Source: a plasmid
Strand: one strand, 5' to 3'
Length of the DNA stretch: 64,000 bases
Sequence record: NZ_CP017041.1
Under the pieces are notes generated by a model. That model searched no databases, was not told the origin of the DNA, and saw only the letters and a program-made list of their open reading frames with translations. Positions 25,175 through 59,090 of this stretch are shown one piece after another. The position numbers and the translations under genes are program-made. Within the stretch, counting starts at the first letter, position 1. Each line of letters begins with the position of its first letter.

Positions 25175-25396
25175 GCTCCTGGATGTGCGGAGGAATTTGT
25201 CAGTGCTTGATCGCGGTGATCAGCCAGCCGGTCGCGGCAGTGGGTTCGGGCACCAGGGTCAGGTGCACCACGGTGTGGTCGGCCAAGGGCACGTCAATCA
25301 GGGGTCCGTCGGCAGTTGCCCCAGCGAAGGTGGGGGTGGCGGGCAGTTGCTGGTTAAGGCCTGGCTAGTTGACTTAAGCACACTATAGTAGGTGGT

Positions 25397-26017
25397 ATGA
25401 ATCTCAAGGAGTGGGCAGGAGTGCGCGGGATTTCGTATCAGACCGCGCTGCGGTGGTATCACCGTGGGCTTATGCCTGTTCCCGTGCATCGAGTGGGAAG
25501 GCTCGTGCTCGTTGATTGTGACGAGCATGGGTTGCCGTTCGAGGGATCGACCCCCGAGCCGACGAAAACGATCATTTATGCTCGGGTGTGCTCGGCGGAT
25601 CAGAAACCCGATCTTGATAGACAGATCGCTCGAGTCATGACATGGGCGAGCGCGAAGGAATTGTCGGTTGATGGTGTTGTCACCGAGGTTGGTTCTGGTC
25701 TCGATGGGCATCGGAAGAAGTTCGAGAAATTGTTGAAGGATGGTTCTGTCAGGACGATTCTTGTGGAACATCGCGATCGATTCTGCCGATTCGGGTCGGA
25801 ATACATTGAAGCGGCACTTTCGGCACAGAATCGTCGTCTCCTTGTTGTTGACGACAAGGAGATCGAAGACGATCTTGTGCAGGATATGACAGATGTGCTC
25901 ACGTCCATGTGTGCGAGATTGTACGGAAAGAGATCAGCGAAACATCGCGCCCGAAAGGCCGTGGAAACGGCCATGACCACTGGCGGTGAAGAATCCGTTA
26001 AGGATGATCACACATGA
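25397..26017 (+). CDS. tnpA: IS607-type transposase TnpA (MerR-like HTH + serine recombinase)
   Basis: N-terminal HTH (GISYQTALRWYHRG) and a serine recombinase catalytic region (IIYARVCSADQKPDLDRQ). Confidence 0.85.
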   Translation: MNLKEWAGVRGISYQTALRWYHRGLMPVPVHRVGRLVLVDCDEHGLPFEGSTPEPTKTIIYARVCSADQKPDLDRQIARVMTWASAKELSVDGVVTEVGSGLDGHRKKFEKLLKDGSVRTILVEHRDRFCRFGSEYIEAALSAQNRRLLVVDDKEIEDDLVQDMTDVLTSMCARLYGKRSAKHRARKAVETAMTTGGEESVKDDHT

Positions 26018-27459
26018 TCACGAAGCCCGCCGCCCCGAAATTGGACAAGAATGGCCCAGATGTTGTTGTCCGGTCCTACAAGTTTGCGTTGAAACCCACG
26101 AAGTCGCAGGAACAGAAATTGCGTCAGCATACGGGTGCAGCAAGGTTTGTCTACAATTATCTCATTTCCCAGTGGCGCGACGACATTCACACTCGTGCCG
26201 AAGAGAAGAAATGCGGCGTTCCTGAGGATGAATTGACGCCGTTCACGTTTAAGTTGTCTGCCTATGATATGCGTAATTACTGGAATCGCACCAAGGGCGA
26301 GTGTGCTCCGTGGTGGCCAGAAGTATCGAAGGAGATCGGCAACGATGCGGCACGTCGTGCCCATGACTCCATTGAGAACTGGTACGACTCCAAGGGCGGG
26401 AAACGCAAGGGCAGAAGAGTGGGCTTCCCCCGGTTCCACAAGCGCGGATGCCATGAATCATGCACGTTCTCAACCGGGACGATCCGTGTCAATCCTGACC
26501 GTCACTCGGTGGCACTGCCCCGAATCGGAACCATAAAGACTCGCGAAAATACGCGCGAATTGCAACGCAAAATCGCCAAAGGTACGGCAAGAATCACTCA
26601 GGCCACGATCTCTCGCGGGTTCAATTATTGGCACGTCTCCTTCACCGTGTACGAGAAGAAACACATTCCCGAAACCCACGCACATTCCGGCTCTGTTGTC
26701 GGGGTGGACATGGGTGTGGGAGATCACGTCATCGTTGCGGCAACCCCAAACGGTGATGAAGTCATGCGTAGGGGATTGCCGCAATCGGTCAAGAAGGATG
26801 AAGCGCGAGTGCGGCACCTTCAGCGCAAACTGTCGCGTAAGCATGGCCCGGATAAGAGGACGAAAACCACGCCCTCGAATCGGTGGATTCGCGCGAACAA
26901 CCAAGTCAATAAGTATCGCGCGAAACTGGCTAACATACGTCGCGATCTTGCGGCGAAGGCTGCTCATGGGTTGGCGACGAATTATGAGACCGTCGTCATC
27001 GAGGACTTGAACGTTCAAGCCATGATGACGCGCGGAGGCGCACACAAACGTGGTCTGAATCGCGCGATAGCGCAGGCCTCATTTGCCGATGTCAGGCGAC
27101 GAATCACCTACAAAACGAGGTGGAATGGCGGTAGAACCGTCATTGCCGATCGGTGGTTTCCATCGTCGAAAACGTGTTCGGAATGTGGAGAAGTGAAATC
27201 CAAGCTCTCCTTGTCCGAGCGTGAATACATCTGCCATCGTTGCGGTGTTGTCGTGGACAGAGACCTCAATGCTGCAACAAATCTGGCGAAATTAGCGGCA
27301 CCGAAATCCGGTGTCGATTTTCACGGAACCGGGAGTTCGCCGGGGATGGGACGTGGAGGCGCGGGGAAGACCAACTCATCCTCGGGTGAGCTGGCACCGG
27401 CCGGTGAAGCGTCAATGGCCCGAAAGGACCTGAGCGGCCGCAAGGCCGGCACGAGATAA
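26014..27459 (+). CDS. tnpB: TnpB (RNA-guided nuclease, OrfB_IS605 family)
   Basis: 481 aa ORF with a C-terminal zinc finger plus RuvC-III (CSECGEVKSKLSLSEREYICHRCGVVVDRDLNAATNLA). Confidence 0.85.
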   Translation: MITKPAAPKLDKNGPDVVVRSYKFALKPTKSQEQKLRQHTGAARFVYNYLISQWRDDIHTRAEEKKCGVPEDELTPFTFKLSAYDMRNYWNRTKGECAPWWPEVSKEIGNDAARRAHDSIENWYDSKGGKRKGRRVGFPRFHKRGCHESCTFSTGTIRVNPDRHSVALPRIGTIKTRENTRELQRKIAKGTARITQATISRGFNYWHVSFTVYEKKHIPETHAHSGSVVGVDMGVGDHVIVAATPNGDEVMRRGLPQSVKKDEARVRHLQRKLSRKHGPDKRTKTTPSNRWIRANNQVNKYRAKLANIRRDLAAKAAHGLATNYETVVIEDLNVQAMMTRGGAHKRGLNRAIAQASFADVRRRITYKTRWNGGRTVIADRWFPSSKTCSECGEVKSKLSLSEREYICHRCGVVVDRDLNAATNLAKLAAPKSGVDFHGTGSSPGMGRGGAGKTNSSSGELAPAGEASMARKDLSGRKAGTR

Positions 27460-27551
27460 CCTGACCATCAGAGTCAGTTCTCATGCAACGGTGAAGGCGG
27501 CCAGGCCTGCTGGGATGAGGATGGCGGCCGCGCTGACGGACCGTAGTGAGG

Positions 27552-43999: not shown

Positions 44000-44191
44000 A
44001 TGACCGATCTCGACCTAGCCAAGAACCAGATCACCTGGCTAGCCGCACACCTGCGCTCCCGGGTTGTTGACGAGCGTGGTGGTGGTAGTTCCACCGTGGA
44101 GACATTGATTTGGATTGGTGTCATCGTGGTGGCGGTGATTGCTGTGGGCGCCGGGGTGACGGCGTTCATCAAGTCGAAGATGCCTCACTAA
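44000..44191 (+). CDS. flp: Flp/Fap-family pilin
   Basis: 63 aa ORF. A basic leader is followed by ERGGGSSTVETLIWIGVIVVAVIAV (G/XXXXE-like processing motif plus a hydrophobic stretch). Confidence 0.6.
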   Translation: MTDLDLAKNQITWLAAHLRSRVVDERGGGSSTVETLIWIGVIVVAVIAVGAGVTAFIKSKMPH

Positions 44192-44982: not shown

Positions 44983-44983
44983 G

Positions 44984-45379
44984 ATGGATGAGCGTGGCGG
45001 CGGTTCGGCGTCGGTGTGGATGCTGCTCATGGTGCCAGTGATCCTGGTGGTGGCCGGTCTGGTCTTTGACGGGTCCCGTCAGATCTCAGCAACCCAGGCG
45101 GCTCAGGATGCTGCGGTGGCGGCGACCCGCGCCGGAACCGATGCGGCAGCAACCCCGCAACTGGCCGGCCGCGACGGTGCGGCCGCGGCTGTCCAGGCAG
45201 CCCGACAGGCGCTGTCTGCGGCCGGGGTGAGTGGATCGGTGCAGGTGGGCGGGGTGACCATCACGGTGACCACGTCTCAGAGCCGGCCGACGCTGTTTCT
45301 GTCGGCGATCGGAATCAGCCAGGTGACCGGGCACGGGAAGGCTCATGCCCAGCTTGTAGGACCGGGAGAACGTCCATGA
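44984..45379 (+). CDS. TadE/TadG-like pseudopilin
   Basis: RGGGSASVWMLLMVPVILVVAGLVFDG N-terminus. Confidence 0.5.
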   Translation: MDERGGGSASVWMLLMVPVILVVAGLVFDGSRQISATQAAQDAAVAATRAGTDAAATPQLAGRDGAAAAVQAARQALSAAGVSGSVQVGGVTITVTTSQSRPTLFLSAIGISQVTGHGKAHAQLVGPGERP

Positions 45380-48300
45380 CAGTGATGCGTCGTATCCGTG
45401 CCCTGGTGGCGCTATGCGTGGTGATCGTCGGCCTACCGATCGGGCTGGCGGTTGCGGGCGCCCCACTGATGCCTTCGGGTCTGTCGTGGGCTCATCTACG
45501 GCATCTGCTAACGACCCCGGATATGACCGGGTCTGTGCTGGTGTGGCTGGTCAGCCTCATCGGCTGGATCTGCTGGGCGTGGTTTACCCTGGCCGTGGCA
45601 GCCGAGGCGGTCACGATGGCCTCGGGGCGTCGACTTCGGTTGCACATGCCTGGCCCCCGCGTGGTACCCCGCGTGGCTGCCGGTCTCCTTATTGCCGCGT
45701 TCGCGGCCGCACCGGCGGCCACGTCGATAGCTCACGCCGCAGAGGCCCCCCATGTGGCGGTTACCGCCCAGGTGGCCCCAGCCCACGCGGCTACCACCCA
45801 TAACAGTCATGGCCCTCACACCCCCGGGGCTCCGAAGATCTGGAAGACTCACACGGTGCGGCCCGGCGACTACCTGTGGGAGATCGCCGAGCACTACTAC
45901 GGTGACGGCTCCCACTTCCGTCGTATCGCCGAGGCCTCCGGTATCGACCCGCACTCGGAACTGAAAGCCGGCCAAAAACTGGTCCTACCAGTTCCCGAAA
46001 ACACAGCCGCGGTTCATTCGGTCCAGGCGGGGGAGTACCTGTGGGAGATCGCCGAGCACTACTACGGTGACGGCTCCCAGTTTCATAAAATCGCCGAGGC
46101 TTCCGGTATCGACGCCCATTCCGATCTAGCCGTGGGCCAAAAACTCATCATCCCCGGGCCTCTCCACCACGCCACAGCCCCAACATCAACCCATCCGAAG
46201 GTCCACACGCCGAATGCCGCGGTGGTCCCCGCATCCGCGACTGCGCCTGTCCATAAGGCCACACCTGCGCCCGCCCCGACGTCGTCTATTCCAGCTCACC
46301 CGAAGGCCCCGGCCGTCTCCTCTGCCGGCCACTCAACCAGCGACAAGCACCCCACCAGCCCAGCCACCGTCGCCGCTATTAGTGACGAGGAGGCCTTGTC
46401 CCCGGTTCAGGTGGGGCTGACCGCCAGCGTCGGACTCGTGCTCGTCGCCGGGCTGGTCACCACCCTTAACCGCCGCTACCGGACCCGGTTCACCCGCCAG
46501 CCCCGCGGCACGGCCATGACCCTGCCCAGCCCAGACGCCCAAACCGCTGAGATAGCGCTACGCAGCACCAGGGCAACCGACACTCTGACGATCACATGCC
46601 TCGACCAGGCGCTCCGCGCGATCGGCGCATGGTGCCACCACACCGGGCACCCGCTGCCACCCCTGCTGGCTGCCCGCATCGACGACGACCGAATCGACCT
46701 GCTGCTATCGGCGTCCACCCCCGACCATCCCAAAGCGGTAGACCTAACCGCCGACGGATCGGTGTGGACCCTGACCGCCGAGCGGATCGACGACCTGCTA
46801 GCCCACGCCGACGACGACCAGGCAGCCCCGTGGCCATCTCTGGTCACGCTGGGACGCGACGACGACGGCGCCCATATTCTTATCGACCTGGAAGCCGCAG
46901 GGACCTTGCACCTGATCGGCGACGACCAAGTCGACACAGCCCTGGCCGCCATCGCTGTAGAACTAGCCACCTGCGACTGGTCCGACGAGGTCAACATCAC
47001 CCTGGTCGGCCAAATATGCCCAGGCCTAGAAGAGGCGTTAGGATCTGCGACCCTGACCCGCGCCGCCGACGTTGACGCCCTCCTCACCACCCTGGAAGCT
47101 CGCGCCAACGATCAGCGGCGCATCCTCACCGAGGAAAGCCCCCTCGCCGCTCACCGAGCTGACCCAGCCCTCTCTGACGGGTTCGACACCGAAGTAATCC
47201 TCCTCAACACCGACCTAACCGAAGCCCAGCGCGACCGGCTCGCCAACCTCATCGAAGCCCTTCCCCGAGTGTCAGTCGCCGCAGTAACAACCAGCCACAC
47301 CAGCCCACACGAATGGTCCCTCACCTTGACAGGGGACCCCCTAGTCGCCAAGCTGGCCCCTCTCGGCTGGCATGTCCACCCCCAAACCCTCTCCCCAGAC
47401 CTCTACGACCGCGTGGTCGAACTGTTAGCCAATTCCGCTGACGACGATTACGAACCTGCCAGCTGGTGGGACCACAACACCGAAATCAAACCAAACACCA
47501 GCCAGGACGACGAAGATAAGACTGCCATCAGCAGGCACACCCGCCCGAATATCCGCCTAACCACTCTGACCGGCGACATCAACCTATCCAGCGTCGACAT
47601 CGACACCATCATCGACGACGCCAACCAGGCCCTCAACGCCGACGAACCCACCGACCAGGTTCGTGTCAATGCCCACCAACCCGGCACCGATACCCCCTTC
47701 CCCATCGACGACATCGACCCGCTGAACTCAGGCCACCCCGTCCTATCAATCATCGGCCACCCCAACATCACCGGTACCACCGGAACCGCCGGGCGCTCCC
47801 CGTGGCGCTGCCAGCAGCTAGCTCTCTACATCGCTGAGCATCCGGGAGTATCAGGGGCAACTATCGCCGACGATTTGGGTCTATCAGGTGCGACGGTGCG
47901 CTCGATTGCTACACACCTACGACACTGGTTGGGGGCCGATGAGGCCGGGGTGGCTTACATGCCGGCGGCCACGCATGGCTACCGGCTCGATGACCGGATC
48001 GTCACTGATGTGGATTTGATCGACGCCGCCCTGGCCGGGCGGGGTATCAACACCGCTGAGACGGCTACTCTGGTGGCCATTTTGAAACTGGGCCGGGGTC
48101 GGGTCTTCGCCGGCGTTCCTGACTCGGATCTTCGCCAGTTCCGGGCATCGATGTACCACGTGGAGGCCCGCATCGTCGATGCTGCTCTCCAGGTGACTGA
48201 TCGGGCTCTGGAGGCCGGGGACCTGGGGCTGGCCCGCTGGGCGCTAACCCAAGGACTGCTGGTATCTCCCGATCATGAAGATCTGGTGGCTGGGTGTCTA

Positions 48301-48453
48301 CGCACCGAATACCAGGCCGGGAATATGGAAAAAGTCGCCGAACTCGTCGATCATTTATCGGCTACCGCGCGACGGCTGGGTGTCGACTTGAGCGCCGACA
48401 CCACCCGGATCATCGACTCCGTTATTACCCATACACGCAGGAGAGCGTCATGA
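45376..48453 (+). CDS. Membrane protein with two LysM repeats and a C-terminal SARP-like module (winged HTH + BTAD)
   Basis: 1025 aa ORF. N-terminal TM helices. Two near-identical LysM units (HTVRPGDYLWEIAEHYYGDGSHFRRIAEASGID... and HSVQAGEYLWEIAEHYYGDGSQFHKIAEASGID...). A Pro/Ala linker and a TM (VGLTASVGLVLVAGLV) follow. The long cytoplasmic part ends in an OmpR-type wHTH (LALYIAEHPGVSGATIADDLGLSGATVRSIATHLRHWLG) and a BTAD-like helical region. Confidence 0.6.
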   Translation: MTVMRRIRALVALCVVIVGLPIGLAVAGAPLMPSGLSWAHLRHLLTTPDMTGSVLVWLVSLIGWICWAWFTLAVAAEAVTMASGRRLRLHMPGPRVVPRVAAGLLIAAFAAAPAATSIAHAAEAPHVAVTAQVAPAHAATTHNSHGPHTPGAPKIWKTHTVRPGDYLWEIAEHYYGDGSHFRRIAEASGIDPHSELKAGQKLVLPVPENTAAVHSVQAGEYLWEIAEHYYGDGSQFHKIAEASGIDAHSDLAVGQKLIIPGPLHHATAPTSTHPKVHTPNAAVVPASATAPVHKATPAPAPTSSIPAHPKAPAVSSAGHSTSDKHPTSPATVAAISDEEALSPVQVGLTASVGLVLVAGLVTTLNRRYRTRFTRQPRGTAMTLPSPDAQTAEIALRSTRATDTLTITCLDQALRAIGAWCHHTGHPLPPLLAARIDDDRIDLLLSASTPDHPKAVDLTADGSVWTLTAERIDDLLAHADDDQAAPWPSLVTLGRDDDGAHILIDLEAAGTLHLIGDDQVDTALAAIAVELATCDWSDEVNITLVGQICPGLEEALGSATLTRAADVDALLTTLEARANDQRRILTEESPLAAHRADPALSDGFDTEVILLNTDLTEAQRDRLANLIEALPRVSVAAVTTSHTSPHEWSLTLTGDPLVAKLAPLGWHVHPQTLSPDLYDRVVELLANSADDDYEPASWWDHNTEIKPNTSQDDEDKTAISRHTRPNIRLTTLTGDINLSSVDIDTIIDDANQALNADEPTDQVRVNAHQPGTDTPFPIDDIDPLNSGHPVLSIIGHPNITGTTGTAGRSPWRCQQLALYIAEHPGVSGATIADDLGLSGATVRSIATHLRHWLGADEAGVAYMPAATHGYRLDDRIVTDVDLIDAALAGRGINTAETATLVAILKLGRGRVFAGVPDSDLRQFRASMYHVEARIVDAALQVTDRALEAGDLGLARWALTQGLLVSPDHEDLVAGCLRTEYQAGNMEKVAELVDHLSATARRLGVDLSADTTRIIDSVITHTRRRAS

Positions 48454-48489
48454 TCTCCCGTTGCACTCATCCCTATCAGGAAGGTTCCT

Positions 48490-49077
48490 ATGCACCATTA
48501 TCGTCTTGGTATCGGCACTGCCCTCATCGCGGTAGCCGCCGTGGCCGGCTGTCGCTCAACAGACTCGACACCCACACCACCTCCATCCCGTGTCTCCGCC
48601 ACGACATCAGCGAGCTCTACCCTCAGCCCGACCCCGTCAGCCGGAGCGATCAGTGCCGCCGACGCCGAAAAGGTCTACCGCACCGCCTACATCAATAACT
48701 TCGAGGTGGAGAAGATGGGAGGCCTGGCCCCTGGTGAGCCGGCCCCGCTCATGCTCACCAACTACGCCTCCGGCCAAGCCCTCAAGAACTACATGATCTT
48801 CAACCGCAAGGTCTACAACCTAGGCATCCGATGGAAGTCAGGGGCCCCAAAAATCACGGCAGTACGGGAGAAGAAGGGTGATACCACCTATCCTGAGGCT
48901 GCTATCGCTTTGGAGTCCTGCGAGGACGGCCGCTCTATCCGTACTGTGGACCGCCACGGAGAAGCTGACCATGGACGCATCATCCATCTCGATAGCTGGT
49001 ATGCCCGCGACAAGAAGGGCACCGTCAAAATGATCGCACGTAACGGAGTGGAGGTCCCCTCATGCGACGTCAAGTAA
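48490..49077 (+). CDS. Lipoprotein, unknown function
   Basis: Signal peptide with lipobox (LIAVAAVAGC) and a Ser/Thr/Pro-rich linker. Confidence 0.5.
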   Translation: MHHYRLGIGTALIAVAAVAGCRSTDSTPTPPPSRVSATTSASSTLSPTPSAGAISAADAEKVYRTAYINNFEVEKMGGLAPGEPAPLMLTNYASGQALKNYMIFNRKVYNLGIRWKSGAPKITAVREKKGDTTYPEAAIALESCEDGRSIRTVDRHGEADHGRIIHLDSWYARDKKGTVKMIARNGVEVPSCDVK

Positions 49078-49970
49078 TCACCGCGGGCCTCCTGAGCCTG
49101 GCCCTCGCCGCCATGCCCCTGACCGCCCTCGCAGACGACGAAAACTTCAGTAGCCATACGGACACGAATGGTCCTGGCTATGACGTGCGGGTAGATGTGT
49201 GGAACCATCCTCATTCTGGGGCTCATACTCGCTCGGGGGATCGGGGCGGTGATGGGAAGAATCATGATGATGGCCCGGGCGAGGCTACGTCTGTTGATGG
49301 GTTGTCGCAGGCTGATGCGTGGGCTGCTCATGCCGGGTATGCCTCGGCGGCTAACTATCAGTGTCAGATGATGAAGTCTTTTCTTGATAGTTCCGAATCG
49401 GCGCATATGACTGCCGCTGAACGTGCCAGCGGGCAAGCCGATTTCACTAAGAAATGCCGGACGGATCCGTCAGGTAAGGCCAGTGCGATCCCTGACCCGG
49501 CCTGGCTGGGACGCCATGCGGCCATGAAGATGACCCTGCCCGGTGCCCGACCGGTCATTGCCCCTGACCCGAGTCTGAATCAGTGGCATTCGGCGGCGGT
49601 GGGCCAGGCGTTGTGGCTGTCGGTTGATGATCCCACCGCCACCACGCACAAATCGATCACGTTTATGGGACAGATTGTCTCGTTGAGCGCCAAACGAAAC
49701 GGTCTGTCGTTTGATATGGGCGACGGCCACACCGTCCATTGCGACGCCACGACCCCCTGGAGTCCGTCGGTGGAGCCGGGCACCCCCTCCCCAACGTGCG
49801 GCTACACCTATCAGCAGGCAGCCCCGCCAGAGGGCTACAAGGTCACCGCGATCACGTCGTGGGATGTGACGTGGTCGGTGCTGGGCCACACCGGGTCAGT
49901 CCATATTGAAAAGGCCGGTGGGCAGATGCTTCCGGTCGGCGAGTTGGAGTCGGTTGTCACCCACCGATGA
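49062..49970 (+). CDS. Secreted protein, unknown function
   Basis: Sec signal (MRRQVITAGLLSLALAAMPLTALA). Confidence 0.45.
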   Translation: MRRQVITAGLLSLALAAMPLTALADDENFSSHTDTNGPGYDVRVDVWNHPHSGAHTRSGDRGGDGKNHDDGPGEATSVDGLSQADAWAAHAGYASAANYQCQMMKSFLDSSESAHMTAAERASGQADFTKKCRTDPSGKASAIPDPAWLGRHAAMKMTLPGARPVIAPDPSLNQWHSAAVGQALWLSVDDPTATTHKSITFMGQIVSLSAKRNGLSFDMGDGHTVHCDATTPWSPSVEPGTPSPTCGYTYQQAAPPEGYKVTAITSWDVTWSVLGHTGSVHIEKAGGQMLPVGELESVVTHR

Positions 49971-50965
49971 CCCCCGATAGCCCCACCCTCTACGAGGTGT
50001 TAGGGGTTGCCCCCGACGCCACCGACACCCAGCTCAAGACGGCATGGCGCCTCGCCGCGAAAGCGACCCACCCCGATGCCGGCGGCGACCCCCAGGCGTT
50101 CACCACCGCCCAGCACGCCTGGGAAGTGTTGTCTGACCCGGGCTCCCGCGCCTCCTATGATGCCGCCCTGGCGGGAGAAGGCGACCCCGACGTAGAGGCC
50201 CCAGACAACACCGTCGACCCCTTGACCCCCTCGTGGTCGTGGAGTGTCTCCTTCATCGATGCCACCCCGCAGCTACGCCACACCCGGCCCGGCACGCTCG
50301 CCGCGATCGTGGTAGCCGCCGCCGGGGTCGAGGCCGGGATCGGCTGGCATGAGGCGTTGGAGGCCCTCGCCCCCTCTCCCGGGTTCGTAGGTTCGTGGTG
50401 GATGACCTCGGTTCCGGTCGTGGCCGCAGTGACATGGCTCGCGGCGATCACGGGGGTACAGGCCATCATGGCCGGGATCGGCTGGCTGGGGTGGGGCTTG
50501 ATCGGTGCCGCCTGCCTGTGGGGACACCCGTGGGCTGTGGCCGTATTGGGAGCCGGATGGGTGGCCTGGGTAGCCGCCGCAGTGTGGTGGTGGCGCCGAC
50601 GGATGGCCTGGCCTGCCCGCACCTGCCGGGCAGGAAACATGGTCGACATGCCCGAGGTTGACCCGCCATGGATGGAACCGGTGGAACTGGTAGCAGAACT
50701 CATCCCCTCCGTGCGGGCCATGTGGTCTCCTGACGGGCAAACGGTGGCTGTAGTAGCCGGTCGGCGGGTAGCAACCTTAGGGATGCCGATGCGAGGGTGG
50801 CGTGGCATCGAGATGCGGGGCTGGAACCCGATCGGTGCCGACACCGCGTGGATCGTTGACCAGATAGGCGGCTGGCTGGCCGACCAAGACAAACCGCTCA
50901 CCATCGACGGGAAAATCTTGTTCGAGACCTGGGACAGGCTACAGACAGTTCGTCCTCACAGCTGA
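49967..50965 (+). CDS. J-domain (DnaJ-like, HPD motif) membrane protein
   Basis: N-terminal J domain (LYEVLGVAPDATDTQLKTAWRLAAKATHPDAGGD...SYDAAL). It is followed by several Trp-rich TM helices and a cytoplasmic tail. Confidence 0.6.
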   Translation: MTPDSPTLYEVLGVAPDATDTQLKTAWRLAAKATHPDAGGDPQAFTTAQHAWEVLSDPGSRASYDAALAGEGDPDVEAPDNTVDPLTPSWSWSVSFIDATPQLRHTRPGTLAAIVVAAAGVEAGIGWHEALEALAPSPGFVGSWWMTSVPVVAAVTWLAAITGVQAIMAGIGWLGWGLIGAACLWGHPWAVAVLGAGWVAWVAAAVWWWRRRMAWPARTCRAGNMVDMPEVDPPWMEPVELVAELIPSVRAMWSPDGQTVAVVAGRRVATLGMPMRGWRGIEMRGWNPIGADTAWIVDQIGGWLADQDKPLTIDGKILFETWDRLQTVRPHS

Positions 50966-51040
50966 GAAAAATTTTGGGTCCGCCCTGCATATCGGGGCCT
51001 CTTCATACCTTCAAAAGTGTGAAGGGGAATACAGACTCTT
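50881..51040. repeat. Direct repeat copy A (last ~20 codons of J-domain gene + downstream hairpin ccttcaaaagtgtgaagg)
   Basis: About 75% identical to 53161-53325 over ~160 bp. The hairpin lies at 51008-51025. Confidence 0.7.
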
Positions 51041-51134
51041 CGACTGGAATTAAAATGGTATATGGCGTGTCCGGTCCGCACCCAGCTCCACGATGCGCCA
51101 TAGGGGAGCCATAACTTCACCAATCGTATACGAT

Positions 51135-51401
51135 ATGAGTGTGGGTGAGCATCTACCGGTGGCCGACAGTCAGATACAAGCATGGGCGGATGAAGCAGAA
51201 GCTGATTATGACCTCAGCATGCTTCCGCCGTCTCGACGTGGTCGCCCACCGGTGGGGAGGGGCCCGGGCACTGTGGTCCCTGTGCGCTTCGACGCGGACA
51301 CTCTCAAGGCGTTGTCACAACGAGCCCATGACGAAGGATTGACCACGCGTTCTGACGCGATCCGTGCTGCGGTTAACCAGTGGCTCGGCCTCGGCTCGTA
51401 A
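51135..51401 (+). CDS. RHH (CopG-family) DNA-binding protein / antitoxin-like
   Basis: C-terminal RHH (VVPVRFDADTLKALSQRAHDEGLTTRSDAIRAAVNQWL). The start at ATG 51135 is preferred. Confidence 0.45.
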   Translation: MSVGEHLPVADSQIQAWADEAEADYDLSMLPPSRRGRPPVGRGPGTVVPVRFDADTLKALSQRAHDEGLTTRSDAIRAAVNQWLGLGS

Positions 51402-51969
51402 ACATTATCGGCGCGACAACCTTACTGATGACGCTGTTGGTTACGCCGTAGAGCACATCTTGTACTCGTGGGCGCTCGACGATGCTGATGATCCTCGGTG
51501 CTGGATGATGATTCGGTGTTGACCCAGCTGGCCTCCTCATGGAGCTAGTTATCCTCATCTACGACGATGGCTATGAACTCCTGATCCACGCCATGAAAGC
51601 CCGCCCTCAGTATCTGAGCTACTTCGCTATCTAGTGTTGTTGGGCGAGTTGAACTCAACTTTTCTCCGACGCAAGCGCCAATAAAAGGCTGATCCATCCG
51701 AATACCACCAAACACGGCTGAAGTGTGGAACAGATTCAGCAAGACAGGGTGCGGTGCTCGGGTGCGTTGGGGAGATGAGGATATTCAGGCTTCTGGCGGG
51801 ATGTGGCTTGATGACGTCCAGGATCACCGGTTCGGTTTTGAAGGTGCCTTGCATTAATGTCGACAGGGTCGTACGACTCGAGGATTGGATCGACCAGCCC
51901 GTTGCGTCTGAAGAACTTCATCCACCCCGGTGGAGCTCCGGCCGCGTACTGGTGCAACGGATCATTAGC

Positions 51970-52944
51970 ATGGGTAGCGTGAGTATGCCTTCGATCGTGG
52001 TCAGTGCTGTCATCATCCAAGATTCTGACGGGCGGCTTCTCACTGTCCGTAAACGAGGCACCGAGGCATTCATGCTGCCAGGCGGCAAGCCGGAGCCCGG
52101 CGAGGACTCGCGTCAGGCAGTAGTCCGGGAAGTGCACGAAGAGCTCGGCGTCGCATTGTCTTCCGACGACCTGCGTCGGGTGGGAGTGTTCACCACGCGA
52201 GCAGCGAATGAGGCCGGCCATCAGGTGGTGGCGACGATTTTCACCCACACCCCGGTTGCGGTGAGTGAGCCAGCTGCTGAGATCGAGCAGATTCGTTGGC
52301 TCGATTGGAGTGTCGACGCCCTGCCTGACGACCTGGCCCCGCTGCTGGTCGAGGCAGTCATCCCGTGGCTGCGGCGCCGTATCCGGTCGGTCGCTGTATT
52401 CACGGGTGCGAAGGATGGAACCGACCCTCATTATCGTGTCGAAGCAACCGCCTTGGGCCGGGGTCTCGCACACGCCGGGATCACCCTGGTTTATGGCGGC
52501 GGGAAGGTCGGGATGATGGGTGCTGTTGCTGATGCGGCCCTCGCTGCTGGCGGCGCTGTGATCGGAGTGATGCCGCAGCACTTGGTGGACGGGGAGATCG
52601 CCCATCCTAGTCTGACTCACCTCGAGGTAGTGCGGACTATGCATGAGCGCAAGCAGCGGATGAGTGACCTAGCTGACGCGTTCGTCGCGCTACCCGGCGG
52701 CGGCGGAACCCTTGACGAGCTATTCGAAGCATGGACATGGCAGCAGCTCGGTGTACACAGCAAACCCGTGGCCTTGTACGACTCGACCTTCTGGGCACCG
52801 CTGACCGCGCTACTCAACCACATGACCATCGAAGGCTTCATCCGCCCTGAGGACCGCGCCTCGCTCGTGATCGCCGATACCATACATCAGCTGATGGCCG
52901 ATCTTGAGGGATGGACCCCACCACCACCGAAGTGGCGCTCGTGA
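51970..52944 (+). CDS. NUDIX hydrolase - LOG family (cytokinin riboside 5'-monophosphate phosphoribohydrolase-like) fusion protein
   Basis: Complete Nudix box (GGKPEPGEDSRQAVVREVHEELGV, i.e. Gx5Ex7REUxEExGU). It is followed by LOG signatures (VYGGGKVGMMGAV and ALPGGGGTLDELFEAW, i.e. GGGxxGxM and PGGxGTxxE). The start at ATG 51970 is preferred over the ORF-track 51754. Confidence 0.7.
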   Translation: MGSVSMPSIVVSAVIIQDSDGRLLTVRKRGTEAFMLPGGKPEPGEDSRQAVVREVHEELGVALSSDDLRRVGVFTTRAANEAGHQVVATIFTHTPVAVSEPAAEIEQIRWLDWSVDALPDDLAPLLVEAVIPWLRRRIRSVAVFTGAKDGTDPHYRVEATALGRGLAHAGITLVYGGGKVGMMGAVADAALAAGGAVIGVMPQHLVDGEIAHPSLTHLEVVRTMHERKQRMSDLADAFVALPGGGGTLDELFEAWTWQQLGVHSKPVALYDSTFWAPLTALLNHMTIEGFIRPEDRASLVIADTIHQLMADLEGWTPPPPKWRS

Positions 52945-53086
52945 CATAGAACAAATGATTCTGACTATGGCTCATTGACATCTGCGCAGCGGCTACTAGC
53001 TCCATTGACTTCAAATCGGGCCTTGGCCGAGGCTCGGTTCAGGTGGCCCGGAATGGATCCCCACAAATTGAATGCTCATGATCGAG

Positions 53087-53245
53087 GTGATGAACGCCCA
53101 CTCTATTGTCCTACGCCCGGTTGTATCCAGCGAGCAATTGAAGGTGCTGCGCCTGCTGGTCGACCAGGCCGAGCCACTCATCATCGACGGGCGCATCTTG
53201 TACGAGGCATGGGACAGGCTGCAAACAGCCCGTCCGGCCCGCTAG
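53087..53245 (+). CDS. Small ORF (52 aa) whose C-terminus is paralogous to the J-domain protein C-terminus
   Basis: MNAHSIVLRPVVSSEQLKVLRLLVDQAEPLIIDGRILYEAWDRLQTARPAR. Compare ...TIDGKILFETWDRLQTVRPHS at 50900-50965. It is below the ORF-track length threshold. Confidence 0.3.
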   Translation: MMNAHSIVLRPVVSSEQLKVLRLLVDQAEPLIIDGRILYEAWDRLQTARPAR

Positions 53246-53325
53246 AAAAAATTTTTAGGGCCCGCTCCGCACATCCCGGTCTGTACCCACACCTTCAAGG
53301 GTGTGAAGGGAATAAAAACACACCT
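53161..53325. repeat. Direct repeat copy B (with hairpin ccttcaagggtgtgaagg)
   Basis: About 75% identical to 50881-51040. The hairpin lies at 53292-53309. Confidence 0.7.
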
Positions 53326-53396
53326 AACAACAACTTTGTTTCATGATTTGGCGCGTCGGACCCTTTCTGACCGATGTCGTGCGCAACAATGGACCC

Positions 53397-53741
53397 ATGA
53401 GTTCGCCTACCAAGATGCGCCGGAAGGGAACACGCGGCCCGAAACCTCGCAGCGACGAGGAGCTAACGGCTGTGATGTGCCGCATCCCAGAGTCAGTGGC
53501 CGAACGTGTCAGCGATATGGCTTGGGAGCTGAGGCTCTCCCGATCCGATCTTGTGGGCTGGTCGGCCCTCTATGCACTCAACTCGATGCTCAGACAGCGC
53601 GGAGAGGACACGATTCCGGTTCCGGAGTATCTGGACAAGGCCGTGCTCACTGCGTTGTATCCCGATGGGTTGCCCTTCGACGAGGACAACGAGGAGCCGG
53701 GCGAGAATGCCGGGCAGGAGGAGCTTGCGATGACTGGATGA
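53397..53741 (+). CDS. RHH (CopG-like) protein upstream of rep-like gene
   Basis: RIPESVAERVSDMAWELRLSRSDLVGWSALYAL ribbon-helix-helix with an acidic C-terminal tail. Confidence 0.4.
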   Translation: MSSPTKMRRKGTRGPKPRSDEELTAVMCRIPESVAERVSDMAWELRLSRSDLVGWSALYALNSMLRQRGEDTIPVPEYLDKAVLTALYPDGLPFDEDNEEPGENAGQEELAMTG

Positions 53742-54054
53742 GCCCGAACATGGTTGAAGGCCGCCCCGCCAGGCGACCTTCAATCAATGGTTTCGGTTGT
53801 CAGCTGCAGCCACCCTTGCCAGGTGCTGTGGTTCTTCTCCAGAGGAGGAGGGACCGCCATGAAGACCAAGAAGACCTAGAAGATCCAAAAGAACCGGTTT
53901 CAGCTTTTGCTTCGGTCTTCATGGTAGCTGATAGCCCGCGTCGTTGGAAGTGCGACGACGCCGATCCTCATCGGTATCGCACCCTGAAACAGGGTGTTGA
54001 ACATGAAGGGTTGACCGCTATGTCAAGCCATGAGACGCCCTCCCGGAGGGCGTC

Positions 54055-55605
54055 ATGACCGCTTTAATTCAAGCTCTGCCGACAGCTGAACTGTCTGCTG
54101 GACCTGGTGCTAGCAGTCCAGCTAGACCCTCTGCTGAGGGCTTCATCAAGATTCATCACGACCTCATTAGTGCGGGCGTGTCGGGTAACGCGATGGCGTT
54201 GTTCGTCGCGTTACGTAACCAGCCCGGCTGTGATCAGTGGACCCGTCACTCGTACCTGCGGCTAGCCCAATGGTGCGGCTGGGATGGGCTGTCGGAGGCG
54301 GCGGGCTGTAAGCGGGTGCAGCGGGCCGCTGCTGAGCTCGCTAGCGGTGGTTGGCTGGAATCGCGGGTCGGCCATGATCGTCGCACCGCTAAGACGCTGG
54401 TGTGGCATCGGTTGACCAGCCCCGACACCGACCGCTGGGAGCAATTGCCGCGGATTGTGTGGGCGAGGATCTGCCAGATCGCCGGGGAGACGTCGGGAGA
54501 GTGGGTGAGGCATTGGCTGGTGTGGCGGATGCTGGCCGGTCGTACTGGTGTGGCTCAGGCCCCTACGTCCATCGTGGCCCGGTTCCTGGGCTGTTCTTCG
54601 CGCCAGGTCTCTCATATCCGTGGGGCTCTCGTTGATGCCGGTCTGCTCGGCTGTGACGAGGTGTCGGGGGCGGCGAGCCGGGTGTGGTTCCCCTCGATGG
54701 CCGAGGAGTGTGCAGCGGATCGTGAGGTGGTCGATGGGGCCGTCGTCGGTGCTGGGGTGGGCTCTGGTGAAGGTGTCGAGGAGGGCGGGGAACCCCTGTC
54801 GATTTTGTCCACCCACCCCTGTCGATTTTGTCCACCCACCCCTGTCGATTTTGTCCGCCAAGTATTAGACAAACCATTAGACAGTGAATTAGACCTTGGG
54901 TCGCGTCAGCGTGTTAGCTCACCAACGCGCGCGCGCGCGGCGGCCGAGCCGCCGAAGCCAAAGAAACCCATACCACCAACGCCTGAACCAGCAGCCCCCG
55001 CTTCAGACAGTCCTGTGTCAGCGCACGCTGATGAGGCTGCCGAGTTGGCGTGGCGGTTCGTGGGGTGGTGTCCTCAGCTGGTAGGGGCACCGAAGAAGGT
55101 GCGTGGCCAGCTCCGTCAGATGGTTGCCAAGCAGATCCGTCTCCATCGTGCCTGGCTGGATGTGCCGGCGTTGACTGTTGCCGCTGAGCGAGTCCGGGAA
55201 ATCGGGGCGCTGGGTGATCGGCACTGCGAGATCGTTCGAGACGAGCTGCATGGCGTGATTGCCGACCGCAAGGCAGCCCCCCCAGCCCCCTCACCCTCAC
55301 CAGACGAAGGAGACACGACTGTGTGGATTTACAAAGACCCTCATGAGACTCTTGACGAGTTTGCGGCCAGGACTGAGCCCTCTCGTGTGTGGGAGGTCTC
55401 CGAGCGCGATGACATGGCTGGCGGGATCGCCGTGAACTTGCTGGCGGCTAAGCCGGATGATCCGATGGGCTGGCTGACTCGCCGGCAAACCATGCTGATG
55501 GTCCGGTTCCCCCAAGCCGTCGACGAGGTCGTAGAGATGTGTCACATCGTGCGTACCGCCTTGGAGGCCGACATGGCCGCCGGAACCCGGTGGGAGGACC
55601 GATGA
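54055..55605 (+). CDS. Replication-initiator-like protein (N-terminal winged-helix) with internal 23-bp iterons
   Basis: 516 aa ORF. The N-terminus (FIKIHHDLISAGVSGNAMALFVALRNQ) resembles Rep/wHTH proteins. A 23-bp x3 repeat lies inside the CDS. Confidence 0.45.
   Translation: MTALIQALPTAELSAGPGASSPARPSAEGFIKIHHDLISAGVSGNAMALFVALRNQPGCDQWTRHSYLRLAQWCGWDGLSEAAGCKRVQRAAAELASGGWLESRVGHDRRTAKTLVWHRLTSPDTDRWEQLPRIVWARICQIAGETSGEWVRHWLVWRMLAGRTGVAQAPTSIVARFLGCSSRQVSHIRGALVDAGLLGCDEVSGAASRVWFPSMAEECAADREVVDGAVVGAGVGSGEGVEEGGEPLSILSTHPCRFCPPTPVDFVRQVLDKPLDSELDLGSRQRVSSPTRARAAAEPPKPKKPIPPTPEPAAPASDSPVSAHADEAAELAWRFVGWCPQLVGAPKKVRGQLRQMVAKQIRLHRAWLDVPALTVAAERVREIGALGDRHCEIVRDELHGVIADRKAAPPAPSPSPDEGDTTVWIYKDPHETLDEFAARTEPSRVWEVSERDDMAGGIAVNLLAAKPDDPMGWLTRRQTMLMVRFPQAVDEVVEMCHIVRTALEADMAAGTRWEDR
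54793..54861. repeat. Tandem 23-bp repeat x3 (cccctgtcgattttgtccaccca), iteron-like
   Basis: Three copies with a period of 23 bp, not a multiple of 3. They are read in three frames (PLSILSTH / PCRFCPP / TPVDFVR) inside the rep-like ORF. Confidence 0.8.
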
Positions 55606-56363
55606 GGTCACTGCGGCGAAACATCATGGTTGTGGCTGGTGTGCTCGGCGTCGCGGTAGCGGCGGGCCCGACCTTAGCCAGGTCGTTGCCGTTTGCCGAC
55701 AGGTCTCAGCCGCCGACGACCAGAAATGCCACCCAGGCGGCCGCAACCGGTGCAACGGCTGCGGCGGGCGCGCTCAACCGTCTGCCAGTCAAAGGCAAAG
55801 CAGCGATGACCGGATACACCCGGACCCAATTCGGGCAGGCGTGGACCGATGACACCGACCGGGAGTTGACCCGCCCCTGGGGCCACAACGGATGCGACAC
55901 CCGCAACGATGCCCTTGCCCGCGACCTGGTCGAGGCCCACCTGAAACCCGGATCACGATGCGTGGTCGTCTCCGGGCGACTCCACGACCCCTACACCGGG
56001 TCCACACTCGCCTGGCGGCGCGGCCGGCACACCTCGACAACAGTCCAAATCGACCACGTCGTAGCCCTCGGGAACGCGTGGATTACCGGCGCGCAAAAAC
56101 TCTCACCGCTGCAACGCACCGCCCTGGCCAACGACCCGTTGAACTTGCTGGCTGTCGACGGACCCGCTAATGAGGCCAAACGAGACAGGGATGCAGCGAC
56201 CTGGCTACCCCCTAACAAGGCCTACAGATGCGACTATGTGGCCCGCCAAATCGCCGTCAAAATGAAGTACCAGCTGTGGGTCACCGCCGCAGAGAAGACC
56301 GCTATGGCGCGGGTATTGCACCGCTGCCCGACCCAGACACTCCCTGTAGGAGCCACACGATGA
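55602..56363 (+). CDS. Secreted DUF1524/HNH-type endonuclease
   Basis: Signal peptide (MRSLRRNIMVVAGVLGVAVAAGPTLA). HNH-like core (IDHVVALGNAW...NLLAVDGPANEAKRDRDAATWLPP). ATGA overlap with the rep-like stop. Confidence 0.55.
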   Translation: MRSLRRNIMVVAGVLGVAVAAGPTLARSLPFADRSQPPTTRNATQAAATGATAAAGALNRLPVKGKAAMTGYTRTQFGQAWTDDTDRELTRPWGHNGCDTRNDALARDLVEAHLKPGSRCVVVSGRLHDPYTGSTLAWRRGRHTSTTVQIDHVVALGNAWITGAQKLSPLQRTALANDPLNLLAVDGPANEAKRDRDAATWLPPNKAYRCDYVARQIAVKMKYQLWVTAAEKTAMARVLHRCPTQTLPVGATR

Positions 56364-56524
56364 CCACCCATTGGATCCCCGAACAACTCCTAGAACCCGG
56401 AGTCGGAGTCATCCTCGACACCGAAACCACCGACCTGGACGGGCGCATCATCGAAATATCGATCATTGACGCAGCCACCGGGACGGTCCTGATGGACCAA
56501 CTCATCAACCGTTGCACGAGATAA
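56360..56524 (+). pseudogene. DEDD (DnaQ-like) 3'-5' exonuclease N-terminal fragment, truncated
   Basis: 54 codons with an Exo I motif (GVILDTETTDLDGRIIEISIID). It ends abruptly at ...CTR* in a sequence homologous to the IS607 right end. Confidence 0.4.
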
Positions 56525-56556
56525 CCTGACTACTCAAGTTAGTTCTCGTGCAACGG
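56512..56556. repeat. IS607 right-end-like hairpin (solo copy)
   Basis: The sequence ccgttgcacgagataacctgactactcaagttagttctcgtgcaacgg is a perfect 13-nt-arm palindrome. It is about 80% identical to the sequence at the tnpB 3' end (27455-27500: cacgagataacctgaccatcagagtcagttctcatgcaacgg). Confidence 0.5.
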
Positions 56557-56639
56557 TTGTTTAGAGGAAGGGGGCCGGGCGGTGAGCCCGGGCCCCTGGT
56601 GTGTGCTGAGTCGGCCAACGGGCCCAGCACACAGGTCTG

Positions 56640-57116
56640 TTATGAGGCGCTGGCCTGTTTCGGGCGGCCTGCCTTAGGCTGGCGTGTCCGCGCCCACTGC
56701 TCGGCGGCGGCTTTGGGAAACAGCGGGCCGGCCGCGGTCTTGATGACAGGTGCGGGGAACCCGGCGGTGGCGGCAAGCTGACGGATACGCTGACGTGAGA
56801 GGCCCGCAAGGTGAGCGATCTCGGTGTATCCGACTACTGGGGGAAACAGTGGCCGGTCAAGGTCTGCGAAGAACTCTCCTTCGGGGCGGGCCTCGAGTCC
56901 TGTCACGGTGACATCGCCGCACGCCTCGACGATAGCTGTGCGGGCTGTCTCGGCAGCATGGAGCAGGGAGTCAGCTTCGACGAACACCGAAATTGATCCG
57001 GTGTGCCCGTCCTGGCTCAGTGAGGCGACCGGGGACAGATGATCGAGTGCTTCCAGGGCATCGAGCATCATGTCTTCGCTGACTGCGCGAAGGGACAGGC
57101 GAACGTGCCACATCAT
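56640..57116 (-). CDS. hicB: HicB-family antitoxin
   Basis: N-terminal HicB-like fold (MMWHVRLSLRAVSEDMMLDALE...). C-terminal HTH (YTEIAHLAGLSRQRIRQLAATAGFP). It is downstream of hicA on the minus strand. Confidence 0.5.
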   Translation of the reverse strand: MMWHVRLSLRAVSEDMMLDALEALDHLSPVASLSQDGHTGSISVFVEADSLLHAAETARTAIVEACGDVTVTGLEARPEGEFFADLDRPLFPPVVGYTEIAHLAGLSRQRIRQLAATAGFPAPVIKTAAGPLFPKAAAEQWARTRQPKAGRPKQASAS

Positions 57117-57186
57117 GCATTCTCCTTTCGTGTCGATGTATCTCATGGAGGGGATAGGGGGCTGGGGCTCCAGCCCCCCGTGACTG

Positions 57187-57396
57187 CTAGACAGTGAATC
57201 CCGAGCGCCTCAGTTCGGAAAGCATGTTGGCCCATGCTCTGCGATCCGATGGAGTCTTGTGGATCATGACCGCTGATCGTGACGTATCCGGCGGGTAGAT
57301 CATCCATCCCTTGCGCCGGGTCTCGATGCGGGCACCTTGCTCAGATTCCAGTTCCTTGAACAGTTTCTTAAGCGACTTGCGGTACTCGTTTCCCAT
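57187..57396 (-). CDS. hicA: HicA-family toxin
   Basis: 69 aa ORF: ...LKKLFKELESEQGARIETRRKGWMIYPPDTSRSAVMIHKTPSDRRAWANMLSELRRSGF. Confidence 0.6.
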   Translation of the reverse strand: MGNEYRKSLKKLFKELESEQGARIETRRKGWMIYPPDTSRSAVMIHKTPSDRRAWANMLSELRRSGFTV

Positions 57397-57519
57397 GTCT
57401 CACCTCCCCTGTTGAGTTGTGAGACCAGCATAACACTAAACACTTCCCAATGACAAGGGTTTAGTGTTTGTGGGGTGACTTAGCCGATAGTGCGCTACCT
57501 CTCCCCCGCTTATCGGCGC

Positions 57520-58179: not shown

Positions 58180-58596
58180 GTGAATGAGAAGTCTCGGTTT
58201 GAGGCGATGACGGATGAGCAGTGGGAGCGTGTGGAGCCCCTGTTGCCAACGAACTGTGGGCGTCGGGGTCGCCCGTTCTCGAATAGTCGGATGATCGTCA
58301 ACGGGATCATCTACCGCTACAGGACGGGGATTCCTTGGAGAGACCTGCCTCGTGAGAGGTATGGGCCGTGGCAGACGGTGTGGAAGCGTCACCGCTCCTA
58401 CGCGAGGCGGGGCGTGTGGGATTGTGTCCTTTTTCAGGTGGTGGCCCAAGCGGATTCGGCTGGGAAAGTGGATTGGACGGTCAGCATTGACGCCACGATC
58501 AACCGTGCCCACCAACACGCCACGAACACGACGCGCCCCGACCAGGACACGGGGGGCTTCATCGAACTACAAGAATTCTCCGCTGGGCGAGGATGA
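58180..58596 (+). CDS. IS5/IS427-group transposase OrfA
   Basis: RYRTGIPWRDLPRERYGPWQTVWKRHRSYARRGVWD matches IS427-type OrfA. Confidence 0.75.
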   Translation: MNEKSRFEAMTDEQWERVEPLLPTNCGRRGRPFSNSRMIVNGIIYRYRTGIPWRDLPRERYGPWQTVWKRHRSYARRGVWDCVLFQVVAQADSAGKVDWTVSIDATINRAHQHATNTTRPDQDTGGFIELQEFSAGRG

Positions 58597-59090
58597 GCCT
58601 GCAGGTCACGGCATTGGACGCTCGCGCGGGGGGGTTGACCACGAAGATCCACCAGGTCGTGGACGGCAACGGGCGTCCCTTGGCCATGGTCGTCACTGGA
58701 GGCCAGCGCAACGACGGCGCGATGATGCAGGACACCTTGAAGGACATCTACGTCCCCAGGCCCACCGGCAGGCCCCGCACCACACCCGACACGGTCATGG
58801 CGGACCGGGGCTACACGTCGGGCGTGAACCGTGAATACCTTCGAGATCACCACGTCAAGGCAGTGATCCCCCAGAAGAAGAACGAGATCGCCTCCCGGAA
58901 GAAGAAGGGCTCCAAGGGAGGCCATCCACCCGCCTTTGACGCAGAGGCATACAAGGGACGAAACGTCGTGGAACGCTCCTTCAACAGCGTCAAACAGTGG
59001 CGTGGTCTGGCCACCAGGTACGACAAGCTTGCCGTCACCTACAGGTCAGCCACAGTCCTACACGCCATCCTCCAATGGCTCCAAATATAG
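58593..59090 (+). CDS. IS5/IS427-group transposase OrfB (DDE catalytic part; probably expressed by programmed frameshift from OrfA)
   Basis: ...ADRGYTSGVNREYLRDHHVKAVIPQKKNE...RNVVERSFNSVKQWRGLATRYDK matches the DDE transposase C-terminus. Confidence 0.75.
   Translation: MSLQVTALDARAGGLTTKIHQVVDGNGRPLAMVVTGGQRNDGAMMQDTLKDIYVPRPTGRPRTTPDTVMADRGYTSGVNREYLRDHHVKAVIPQKKNEIASRKKKGSKGGHPPAFDAEAYKGRNVVERSFNSVKQWRGLATRYDKLAVTYRSATVLHAILQWLQI

Follow-up and report, generated by a model that had tools for sequence, protein, structure and literature searches.

A 44-bp remnant of an IS607-family right end at a deletion junction in a Cutibacterium plasmid: a probable product of insertion sequence decay

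Introduction

Why should the hairpin that closes an IS607-family insertion sequence stand by itself at the end of a truncated exonuclease gene? The question is raised by plasmid record NZ_CP017041.1, of which we analysed a stretch of 64,000 nucleotides on one strand (the window). This DNA belongs to a Cutibacterium plasmid of a linear-plasmid family. C. modestum pKB17-24694 matches it at 99% identity over positions 23500-29500 and 40000-53322; identity to the C. acnes plasmids HL096PA1 and pTP-CU411 is about 85%. A preliminary description, made from the letters of the window, suggested two origins for the hairpin: a stand-alone RNA element derived from the right end (RE) of the IS, or a scar left where two IS607 copies had recombined.

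Elements of the IS607 family have a GG terminus, and their insertion at (G)GG leaves no duplication (Chen et al. 2018, PMC6188088). For an IS607-type TnpA, TGGG is the preferred target, and the omega-RNA scaffold closes there with ...UCGG (bioRxiv 10.1101/2023.11.20.567912). We used these rules to read the junctions of the solitary hairpin, here called the relic. Throughout, a caret marks a junction.

Results

The hairpin is IS607 right-end DNA

The features discussed below are collected in Table 1. The boundaries of the resident IS607 element are accurate to about 2 nt; homology to the IS-free C. acnes plasmid restarts at 27490, and the left end (LE) of the family, read from 12 left-end contexts, is GG-(G)[CT]GGCGAGCA-GTTGC. 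The resident TnpB has 2882 homologues with E < 1e-30, about 90 of them at 78-84% identity, and the C-termini of these close relatives read ...SG[RC]KAG[TA]R followed by the stop. The 3' 260 nt of the family give several conserved stems, a predicted scaffold of about 250 nt. In full-length copies, the AAC between the right arm of the RE stem and GG is a bulge.

Table 1. Coordinates of the relic, its surroundings and the resident IS607-family element in the window
Feature	Position	Strand	Remarks
GmrSD_C/HNH-type endonuclease	55602..56363	+	Pfam PF07510, E = 1.9e-20; ATGA overlaps at both ends
Truncated DEDD/RNase_T exonuclease ORF	56360..56524	+	54 codons; ExoI motif DTETTD
Perfect palindrome	56506..56559	.	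16-nt arms 56506-56521 / 56544-56559; 22-nt loop, inner CTGAC/GTTAG stem
Relic 'E', GTTGCACGAGATAACCTGACTACTCAAGTTAGTTCTCGTGCAAC	56511..56554	+	Terminal stem-loop of IS607-family RE; perfect 11-bp terminal inverted repeats
GG crossover/target dinucleotide at RE-host junction	56555..56556	+	Empty site in L190/L143
Would-be guide position, TTGTTTAGAGGAAGGGGGCC	56557..56576	+	Only self-match in window
Convergent 158-aa backbone gene	56640..57116	-	Two downstream hairpins (56571-56632) between gene and relic
Resident complete IS607-family element	25334..27491	+	Only complete one in window; limits from 12 left-end contexts, IS-free plasmid and L165
Resident tnpA	25397-26017	+	Pfam Resolvase
Resident tnpB	26014-27459	+	Pfam HTH_OrfB_IS605, OrfB_IS605, Cas12f1-like_TNB
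Resident RE hairpin	27449-27489	+	Then GG at 27490-27491

The 17-mer GCACGAGATAACCTGAC is found at exactly two sites in the window, 27449-27465 and 56514-56530, where chance would give 0.12 matches even with three mismatches allowed. Over the block GCACGAGATAAC...TGCAACGG, the solo copy and the resident RE (27449-27491) are identical at 36 of 43 positions, or 84%, in agreement with the roughly 80% first estimated. The similarity starts at 56514 and stops at ...GCAACGG(T) in both copies, which in the resident copy is where the IS meets host DNA. The distance of more than 29 kb and the absence of adjacent tnp genes were also correctly described: no tnpA or tnpB lies beside the solo copy, the nearest transposase being an unrelated IS5-like gene about 1.6 kb off, and near 56.5 kb we found neither the LE motif GG-(G)[CT]GGCGAGCAGTTGC... 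nor a transposase ORF.

The solo hairpin folds strongly (-32.8 kcal/mol, z = -8.8; none of 200 shuffles folds equally well), and for the resident RE the values are much weaker (-16.6 kcal/mol, z = -1.9). The palindrome that encloses the relic is a composite. Its outer 5 bp (CAACC/GGTTG) consist of exonuclease and backbone DNA, and in the 3 bp that follow (GTT/AAC) the left side is new sequence.

The relic sits on a deletion junction

Two related loci, L190 and L143, retain the uninterrupted site, CCTGGGG^TTGTTTAAAGG, and at the corresponding point the window reads ...GCAAC GG TTGTTTAGAGG. The relic thus follows the IS607 terminus rule, with its GG joined to a (T)GGG target and without target duplication. 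Taken with the published (T)GGG rule, the GG at CCTGGGG^TTGTTT marks the RE junction as a genuine site of IS607 insertion; on the left is a junction of another kind, a deletion endpoint inside the IS. Both related loci align to the window through 56510 and then again from 56555, and within 56337-57472 the relic is the sole part that lacks a counterpart in either of them. Comparison with relatives that have kept the exonuclease, as the preliminary description proposed, was informative: L190, with its exonuclease of 163 aa, and L143 show 881 bp where the window has the 44 bp GTTGC...GCAAC. Those 881 bp hold the remainder of the exonuclease gene and two small genes, of 87 and 63 aa. As had been supposed, the segment in the window comes from an IS607 right end, and it sits exactly on the deletion junction. 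A precursor with a full IS at TGGGG^TTGTTT was not found among the metagenome loci described below or among the contexts of the neighboring 158-aa gene and its variants.

The backbone is common to L143 and L190 from 56555, and to the C. acnes plasmid from 56571. The two backbone hairpins listed in Table 1 already separate the convergent genes.

The exonuclease gene is a pseudogene fragment

The description of an exonuclease ORF ended after 54 codons was right in that a DEDD (RNase_T) gene is truncated here; only 50 of the codons are genuine. The exonuclease-derived bases run from 56360 to 56510, and codons 51-54 with the stop (RCTR and stop) come from the relic, so that the ORF now stops at the old tnpB stop codon. 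The shared "TR" and stop ahead of the hairpin, already noticed in both copies, belongs to the conserved RE, ACGAGATAA. Among the approximately 90 TnpB relatives examined, none has a C-terminus in ..RCTR; all end ..KAG[TA]R.

A tblastn search against plasmids returned 70 records, mostly annotated as 3'-5' exonuclease, and in these the homology always stops at residue 50. Full-length relatives are 163-200 aa long and continue L[IV][DS]PG...VHGI.... The intact 163-aa orthologue of L190 matches Pfam RNase_T (PF00929); the 54-aa product has no Pfam match, and ExoI is present without ExoII and ExoIII. An intact homologue ending at the same place would have spoken for a generic hairpin, and the intact homologues run more than 110 codons further. 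What the public assemblies examined annotate as a 54-aa "gene" is a fragment of a pseudogene joined to IS sequence.

The operon order is rep, GmrSD_C endonuclease, exonuclease, with the IS target site downstream, and the endonuclease is translationally coupled to the exonuclease ORF via an ATGA overlap. The exact endonuclease protein occurs in 483 assembly blocks, and all 10 of the loci read have an identical 281-nt exonuclease-relic segment. The neighboring 158-aa gene occurs in 1094 blocks, from which ten further loci also carry the identical relic (20 loci in total).

The state of the exonuclease varies among related plasmids. It is intact in L190 and near-complete in L143, with a nonsense codon at position 47; it is cut at codon 6 in L178 and at codon 50 in the window; and in L137, from a sister lineage, it is cut at codon 50 and fused to other DNA. 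The simplest reading is that relaxed selection on this gene lets insertions and deletions persist, with no need for a targeting mechanism.

The relic belongs to another subtype and has counterparts elsewhere

A scan of skin metagenomes for the RE yielded 28 loci, 2 of which (L172 and L173) are chance matches; the right flanks after ...GCAACG^G comprise about 16 distinct sequences. From GCAC to CAACGG, with the loop TACTCAA included, the relic is identical at 43 of 43 positions to the tnpB-linked RE of L177. It differs from the tnpB-linked RE of L167/L168 at a single position (42/43) and from the resident RE at 7 of 43. Since it has the subtype of L177 and seven differences from the resident RE, the relic was not derived from the resident copy.

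Two further solo relics came from the metagenome scan. One, L178/L154, belongs to a sister lineage with the same plasmid backbone, collinear with the window over 45867-56375 at 88%. Its exonuclease is cut after codon 6 (ATGAACAGCCCCTGGACC^), and there the identical 44 bp stands in the opposite orientation; in L178 the RE side of the relic adjoins GG^TCCAGGGG, which reads as a TGGGG target on the exonuclease's bottom strand. The other, L165, has a different RE subtype and lies about 1 kb from a full element.

The relics at all three loci start with GTTGCACGAGA. In its place, the tnpB-linked variants, 14 of 14 distinct ones, have GGCC[GA]G[CT][AG]CGAGA. The extra GTT of the relics is complementary to the AAC lying between the right arm and GG. 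The L165 relic keeps the C.A stem mismatch of its subtype, which implies that only the outer nucleotides (GTT) were copied from the other arm. Past GTT, complementarity to the right flank extends for 5 nt in the window (CAACC/GGTTG), 2 nt in L165 and 0 nt in L178; any longer inverted similarity of the flanks was not significant (p = 0.06-0.65). The exonuclease breakpoint CAACC^ is reused in L137 for a different junction, to the 3' end of the pTP-CU411 p530 gene, with CAACCCC microhomology.

Wider searches added no further copies. The relic had no blastn match in PLSDB; the 15-nt pattern GTTCTCRTGCAACGG, run over 596 Gb of genome contigs, is too short and gave chance matches only; and a scan of viral contigs gave one chance match, inside an AT-rich phage ORF. 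For further searching, the relic can be written as the pattern GTTGCACGAGATAAC-N(13-18)-GTTCTCRTGCAAC.

Discussion

Proposed decay of an insertion directed by its own hairpin

We consider it likely that the relic is the solo RE of a decayed IS607-family insertion and marks a deletion junction in a Cutibacterium plasmid, and that the RE hairpin fixed where the deletion ended. What was lost is tnpB, tnpA and the left end, all lying to the left of the base of the RE stem-loop, together with 881 bp of plasmid DNA that held two small genes and exonuclease codons 51-163.

From the junction sequences, we propose a deletion on the LE side, halted at the RE hairpin, with the other arm of that hairpin serving as template for its end. 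It would begin with a break or a replication stall on the LE side. The strand bearing both RE arms would then fold back, its unpaired 3' tail would be trimmed to the base of the 8-bp stem, and the opposite arm with its flank would be copied (AAC, GG and TTG), adding GTT, CC and CAA. Finally, the end would be joined to other DNA, which in the window is the CAACC microhomology of the exonuclease itself. Such steps would turn a bulged, imperfect stem of 8 bp into a palindrome with 16 perfect base pairs, and this fold-back model yields ...CTCAT-CAACC-GTT-GCACGAGA nucleotide by nucleotide. An arm-templated deletion would in this way explain why the palindrome is perfect over 16 bp. Three junctions in all bear on the fold-back step. 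We infer that a deterministic, hairpin-directed process best explains how three independent relics came to share their left boundary.

Several other routes to the same anatomy were considered and set aside. Gene conversion linking the relic with the resident RE was one of them; in the resident copy, the left arm is plain family consensus. A fusion of LE and RE would contain the outer part of the LE, which is missing. Excision by TnpA at an internal GG predicts GGCACGAGA, and GTTGCACGAGA is observed. A long inverted duplication of the L178 flank was not significant.

Several findings speak against hairpin-directed decay. A precursor with a full IS at the target site did not turn up, and complementarity past GTT shrinks to nothing in L178. 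The relic is also identical at 44 of 44 positions in two lineages whose backbones are 82-88% identical, so the unit itself could move. A tnpB-linked member that natively ends CCGTTGCACGAGATAA, if there is one, would make the templating unnecessary. As to function, the relic is most likely inert and would probably amount to a strong 3' hairpin that ends a truncated operon, with no complete omega-RNA.

By itself, the relic is the remnant of an IS that inactivated a dispensable plasmid gene, and recognizing it is useful for annotation. If the process is general, the same end nucleotide together with templating from the opposite arm would be a signature of past IS607 insertions and of their deletions. 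The signature would also flag perfect palindromes, possibly prone to recombination, in plasmids that are widespread in skin bacteria.

Alternative readings: a mobile unit or a fragile site

The identity across diverged backbones is the starting point of another explanation, that the 44-bp unit is a mini-element which moves or recombines site-specifically, either MITE-like or as a recombination hotspot. Here the family TnpA would act in trans on the two RE-like arms, placing copies and driving swaps of adjacent modules. The relic has the perfect 11-bp terminal inverted repeats and the multiple unrelated loci (the window, L178/L154 and L165) that one expects of a MITE; its left boundary is common to the three loci, its 44 bp are the same in both lineages, it sits exactly on mosaic junctions, and L137 uses the breakpoint CAACC^ again. 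What it does not have is both ends of the parent in a simple insertion with an empty site. The outer part of the family LE is missing from all three relics, and the left junctions read CC, CC and CA, whereas insertion by a serine recombinase needs GG. Moreover, the relic in the window replaces 881 bp, that of L178 also adjoins a truncated gene, and the different RE subtype of the L165 relic suggests an independent origin. A double-stranded DNA circle of about 46 bp, the form that the IS607 transposition intermediate would have to take, seems physically implausible. We regard a mobile unit as unlikely.

A related proposal makes the palindrome, in place of an inert scar, a fragile site still recognized by TnpA, with two mirror-image RE termini, each adjoining GG/CC, that repeatedly nucleates deletions and module exchange in Cutibacterium plasmids. 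If true, it would explain the position on mosaic junctions in two lineages, the identity across diverged backbones and the reuse of CAACC in L137; we think it improbable. In a weaker variant of the active palindrome, RNA from the relic may serve as a decoy for TnpB.

Improbable origins: an RNA element, a recombination scar or a terminator

The preliminary description had offered a stand-alone omega-RNA, that is, a truncated RE-derived RNA working with the resident TnpB as a guide or decoy. The relic does keep the guide-proximal stem-loop and a scaffold end, ...GCAACGG, followed directly by flank (TTGTTTAGAGG), and the plasmid has an intact tnpB of the same family. In tnpB-linked copies, the left-arm changes C to T and A to G (G-C to G-U and A-U to G-U) preserve pairing on the + strand, consistent with an RNA stem. 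However, the match to the IS is confined to the final 41-44 nt, a single stem-loop where a scaffold of about 250 nt is predicted, and what precedes 56514 is exonuclease coding DNA; a full scaffold overlapping the 3' end of tnpB is absent. The IS607-type omega-RNAs described so far require three stem-loops together with a pseudoknot (bioRxiv 10.1101/2023.11.20.567912), of which the relic keeps one stem-loop. Rfam gave no match at gathering thresholds and only noise at E <= 1, and no promoter-like site was found near the relic. The 20 nt at the guide position, which might have pointed to a target, find nothing else in the window; they match 19 of 20 bases of the empty site in L143/L190, as expected for the flank of a former insertion. 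An RNA of this kind is very improbable.

The second origin first suggested, that the resident IS607 recombined with another full copy, draws on the two RE-like sequences in the same orientation, 29 kb apart, and we find it extremely improbable. The relic is of the L177 subtype, seven of 43 positions away from the resident RE, and homologous recombination of two full copies leaves a full copy rather than 44 bp. The 29 kb of backbone between the loci is intact and collinear with IS-free related plasmids, and the missing DNA is a local segment of 881 bp.

There is next to no chance that the relic is a generic intrinsic terminator that resembles an IS end by accident: it is a strong hairpin at an operon end between convergent genes, but it is identical to a tnpB-linked RE at 43 of 43 positions, loop included, L143, L190 and the C. 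acnes plasmids have no such sequence at the orthologous site, and it has no U-tract (only TTT follows the stem) and is not called by a terminator scan.

Comparison with known systems

The relic of a decayed IS is a known kind of object; its recurrent anatomy, a templated palindrome, is without a description that we found in the literature searched. The same literature yielded no description of IS607-derived solo-RE or MITE-like elements, which is absence of evidence only.

With IS607-family right ends, the relic shares the sequence of tnpB-linked members, and the imperfect inverted repeat known near the terminus (Chen et al. 2018, PMC6188088) is likewise seen in the family RE here. Compared with a complete element, it lacks the left end, tnpA and tnpB, with 44 bp left, and its left arm is remodelled by GTT, which makes a perfect palindrome of an imperfect stem. 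The relic resembles the guide-proximal end of a TnpB omega-RNA, with ...ACGG before the flank where CboIStron has ...UCGG (bioRxiv 10.1101/2023.11.20.567912); unlike an omega-RNA, it is not beside tnpB and lacks the upstream stem-loops, the nexus and the pseudoknot, about 80% of the scaffold.

Like MITEs and the PATEs of IS200/IS605, the relic is short, non-coding, bounded by inverted repeats, derived from IS ends and present at several loci. MITEs and PATEs, in contrast, keep both functional ends as simple insertions, whereas the relic is RE-derived only and lies on deletion junctions. Its parent uses a serine-recombinase pathway through a double-stranded DNA circle, which a unit of 44 bp cannot follow. 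The process that we propose, from sequence alone and for the IS607 ends of Cutibacterium, has its counterpart in quasipalindrome template switching and in fold-back (snap-back) end joining, which likewise turn an imperfect repeat into a perfect one through the complement of the opposite arm, with short microhomology.

Repeated loss of the exonuclease gene

Among the related plasmids the exonuclease gene was whole in one relative, L190, and had been broken in four independent kinds of ways in L143, L178, L137 and the window itself (see table). Four independent breakages suggest that the gene is under relaxed selection or that its loss has been selected for.

Exonuclease gene states in the related plasmids, and the IS5-like element near the relic
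Feature	Locus and position	Remark
Exonuclease, intact	L190, 2348-2839, reverse complement	
Exonuclease with a nonsense codon	L143, 24-515	Codon position 47
Exonuclease cut by IS relic	L178, near 10519	Cut at codon 6
Exonuclease cut by IS relic	Window, 56360-56524	Cut at codon 50
Exonuclease fused to another gene	L137, 1531-1743	Cut at codon 50
IS5-like element (DUF4096 + DDE_Tnp_1)	Window, 58180-59090	Apparently frameshifted; 1.6 kb right of the relic

In L137, a sister lineage, the breakpoint CAACC| was exactly that of the window (L137:1676-1690 compared with L002:5235-5260). There the exonuclease is joined through CAACC(C) microhomology to the 3′ end of the p530 gene of pTP-CU411, and the relic is absent from this junction. 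The L137 arrangement may have arisen from a window-like ancestor that was broken at the palindrome.

The contig on which the ancestral arrangement is still intact (L190; GCA_005768745.1, VAFK01000094.1) is filed under a Streptococcus thermophilus metagenome-assembled genome. Its Cutibacterium-plasmid genes are 82 to 95% identical to the window, and the species assignment is probably a binning error.

Neighboring annotations

Otherwise identical plasmid copies differ in whether genes of the IS5-like element are called (L182 and L184 compared with L180 and L183), which may reflect presence or absence of the element or only differences in gene calling. A second annotation concerns resistance. PLSDB/RGI assigns L001:4624-4833 (NC_021086.1, 8545-8754), which has a homologue at window 57187-57396, to the MFS efflux pump gene tet(59), with a stated "100% identity." The gene encodes a hypothetical protein of only 69 amino acids, and at that length the resistance label is almost certainly a false positive.

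Other IS607-family copies and the right-end RNA

Related relics and incomplete elements occur elsewhere. One contig (L165, reverse complement) carries both a full family element (580-2705) and a solo relic (3721-3764); the relic lies about 1 kb downstream of that element's right end (RE) and is of a different RE subtype. A copy without tnpA (L150:1230-2990, and L151) consists of the left end, eight tnpA codons, an intact 482-amino-acid tnpB and the RE. It is flanked by a DUF3566 gene on one side and gyrB on the other, on contigs from skin metagenomes that reach 114 kb and are probably chromosomal. For its exact TnpB protein the index lists 77 assembly blocks, and the DUF3566-gyrB context was common to 22 of the 24 contigs read. 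This TnpB may have become fixed or domesticated.

In the copy of the resident IS on the C. modestum plasmid (L003:5254-5300) and in the L164 copy, the RE is a variant form, distinguished by a 1-nt deletion and by substitutions in its inner loop stem (GAGATAAC-TAACC...), showing that the RE stem-loop varies among copies otherwise 98% identical. A consensus of the element's last ~260 nt, the 3′ end of tnpB included, drawn from window 27000-27491 and from 22 family copies, folds into several stems. One of them, 10 bp long, has apparent compensatory changes (CAACUCAUCC/GGGUGAGCUG versus CAGCUUACUU/GGGUGGGUUG). This region, not represented in Rfam, is a candidate scaffold of the omega-RNA, the guide RNA of TnpB, which IS607-type elements encode toward the RE.
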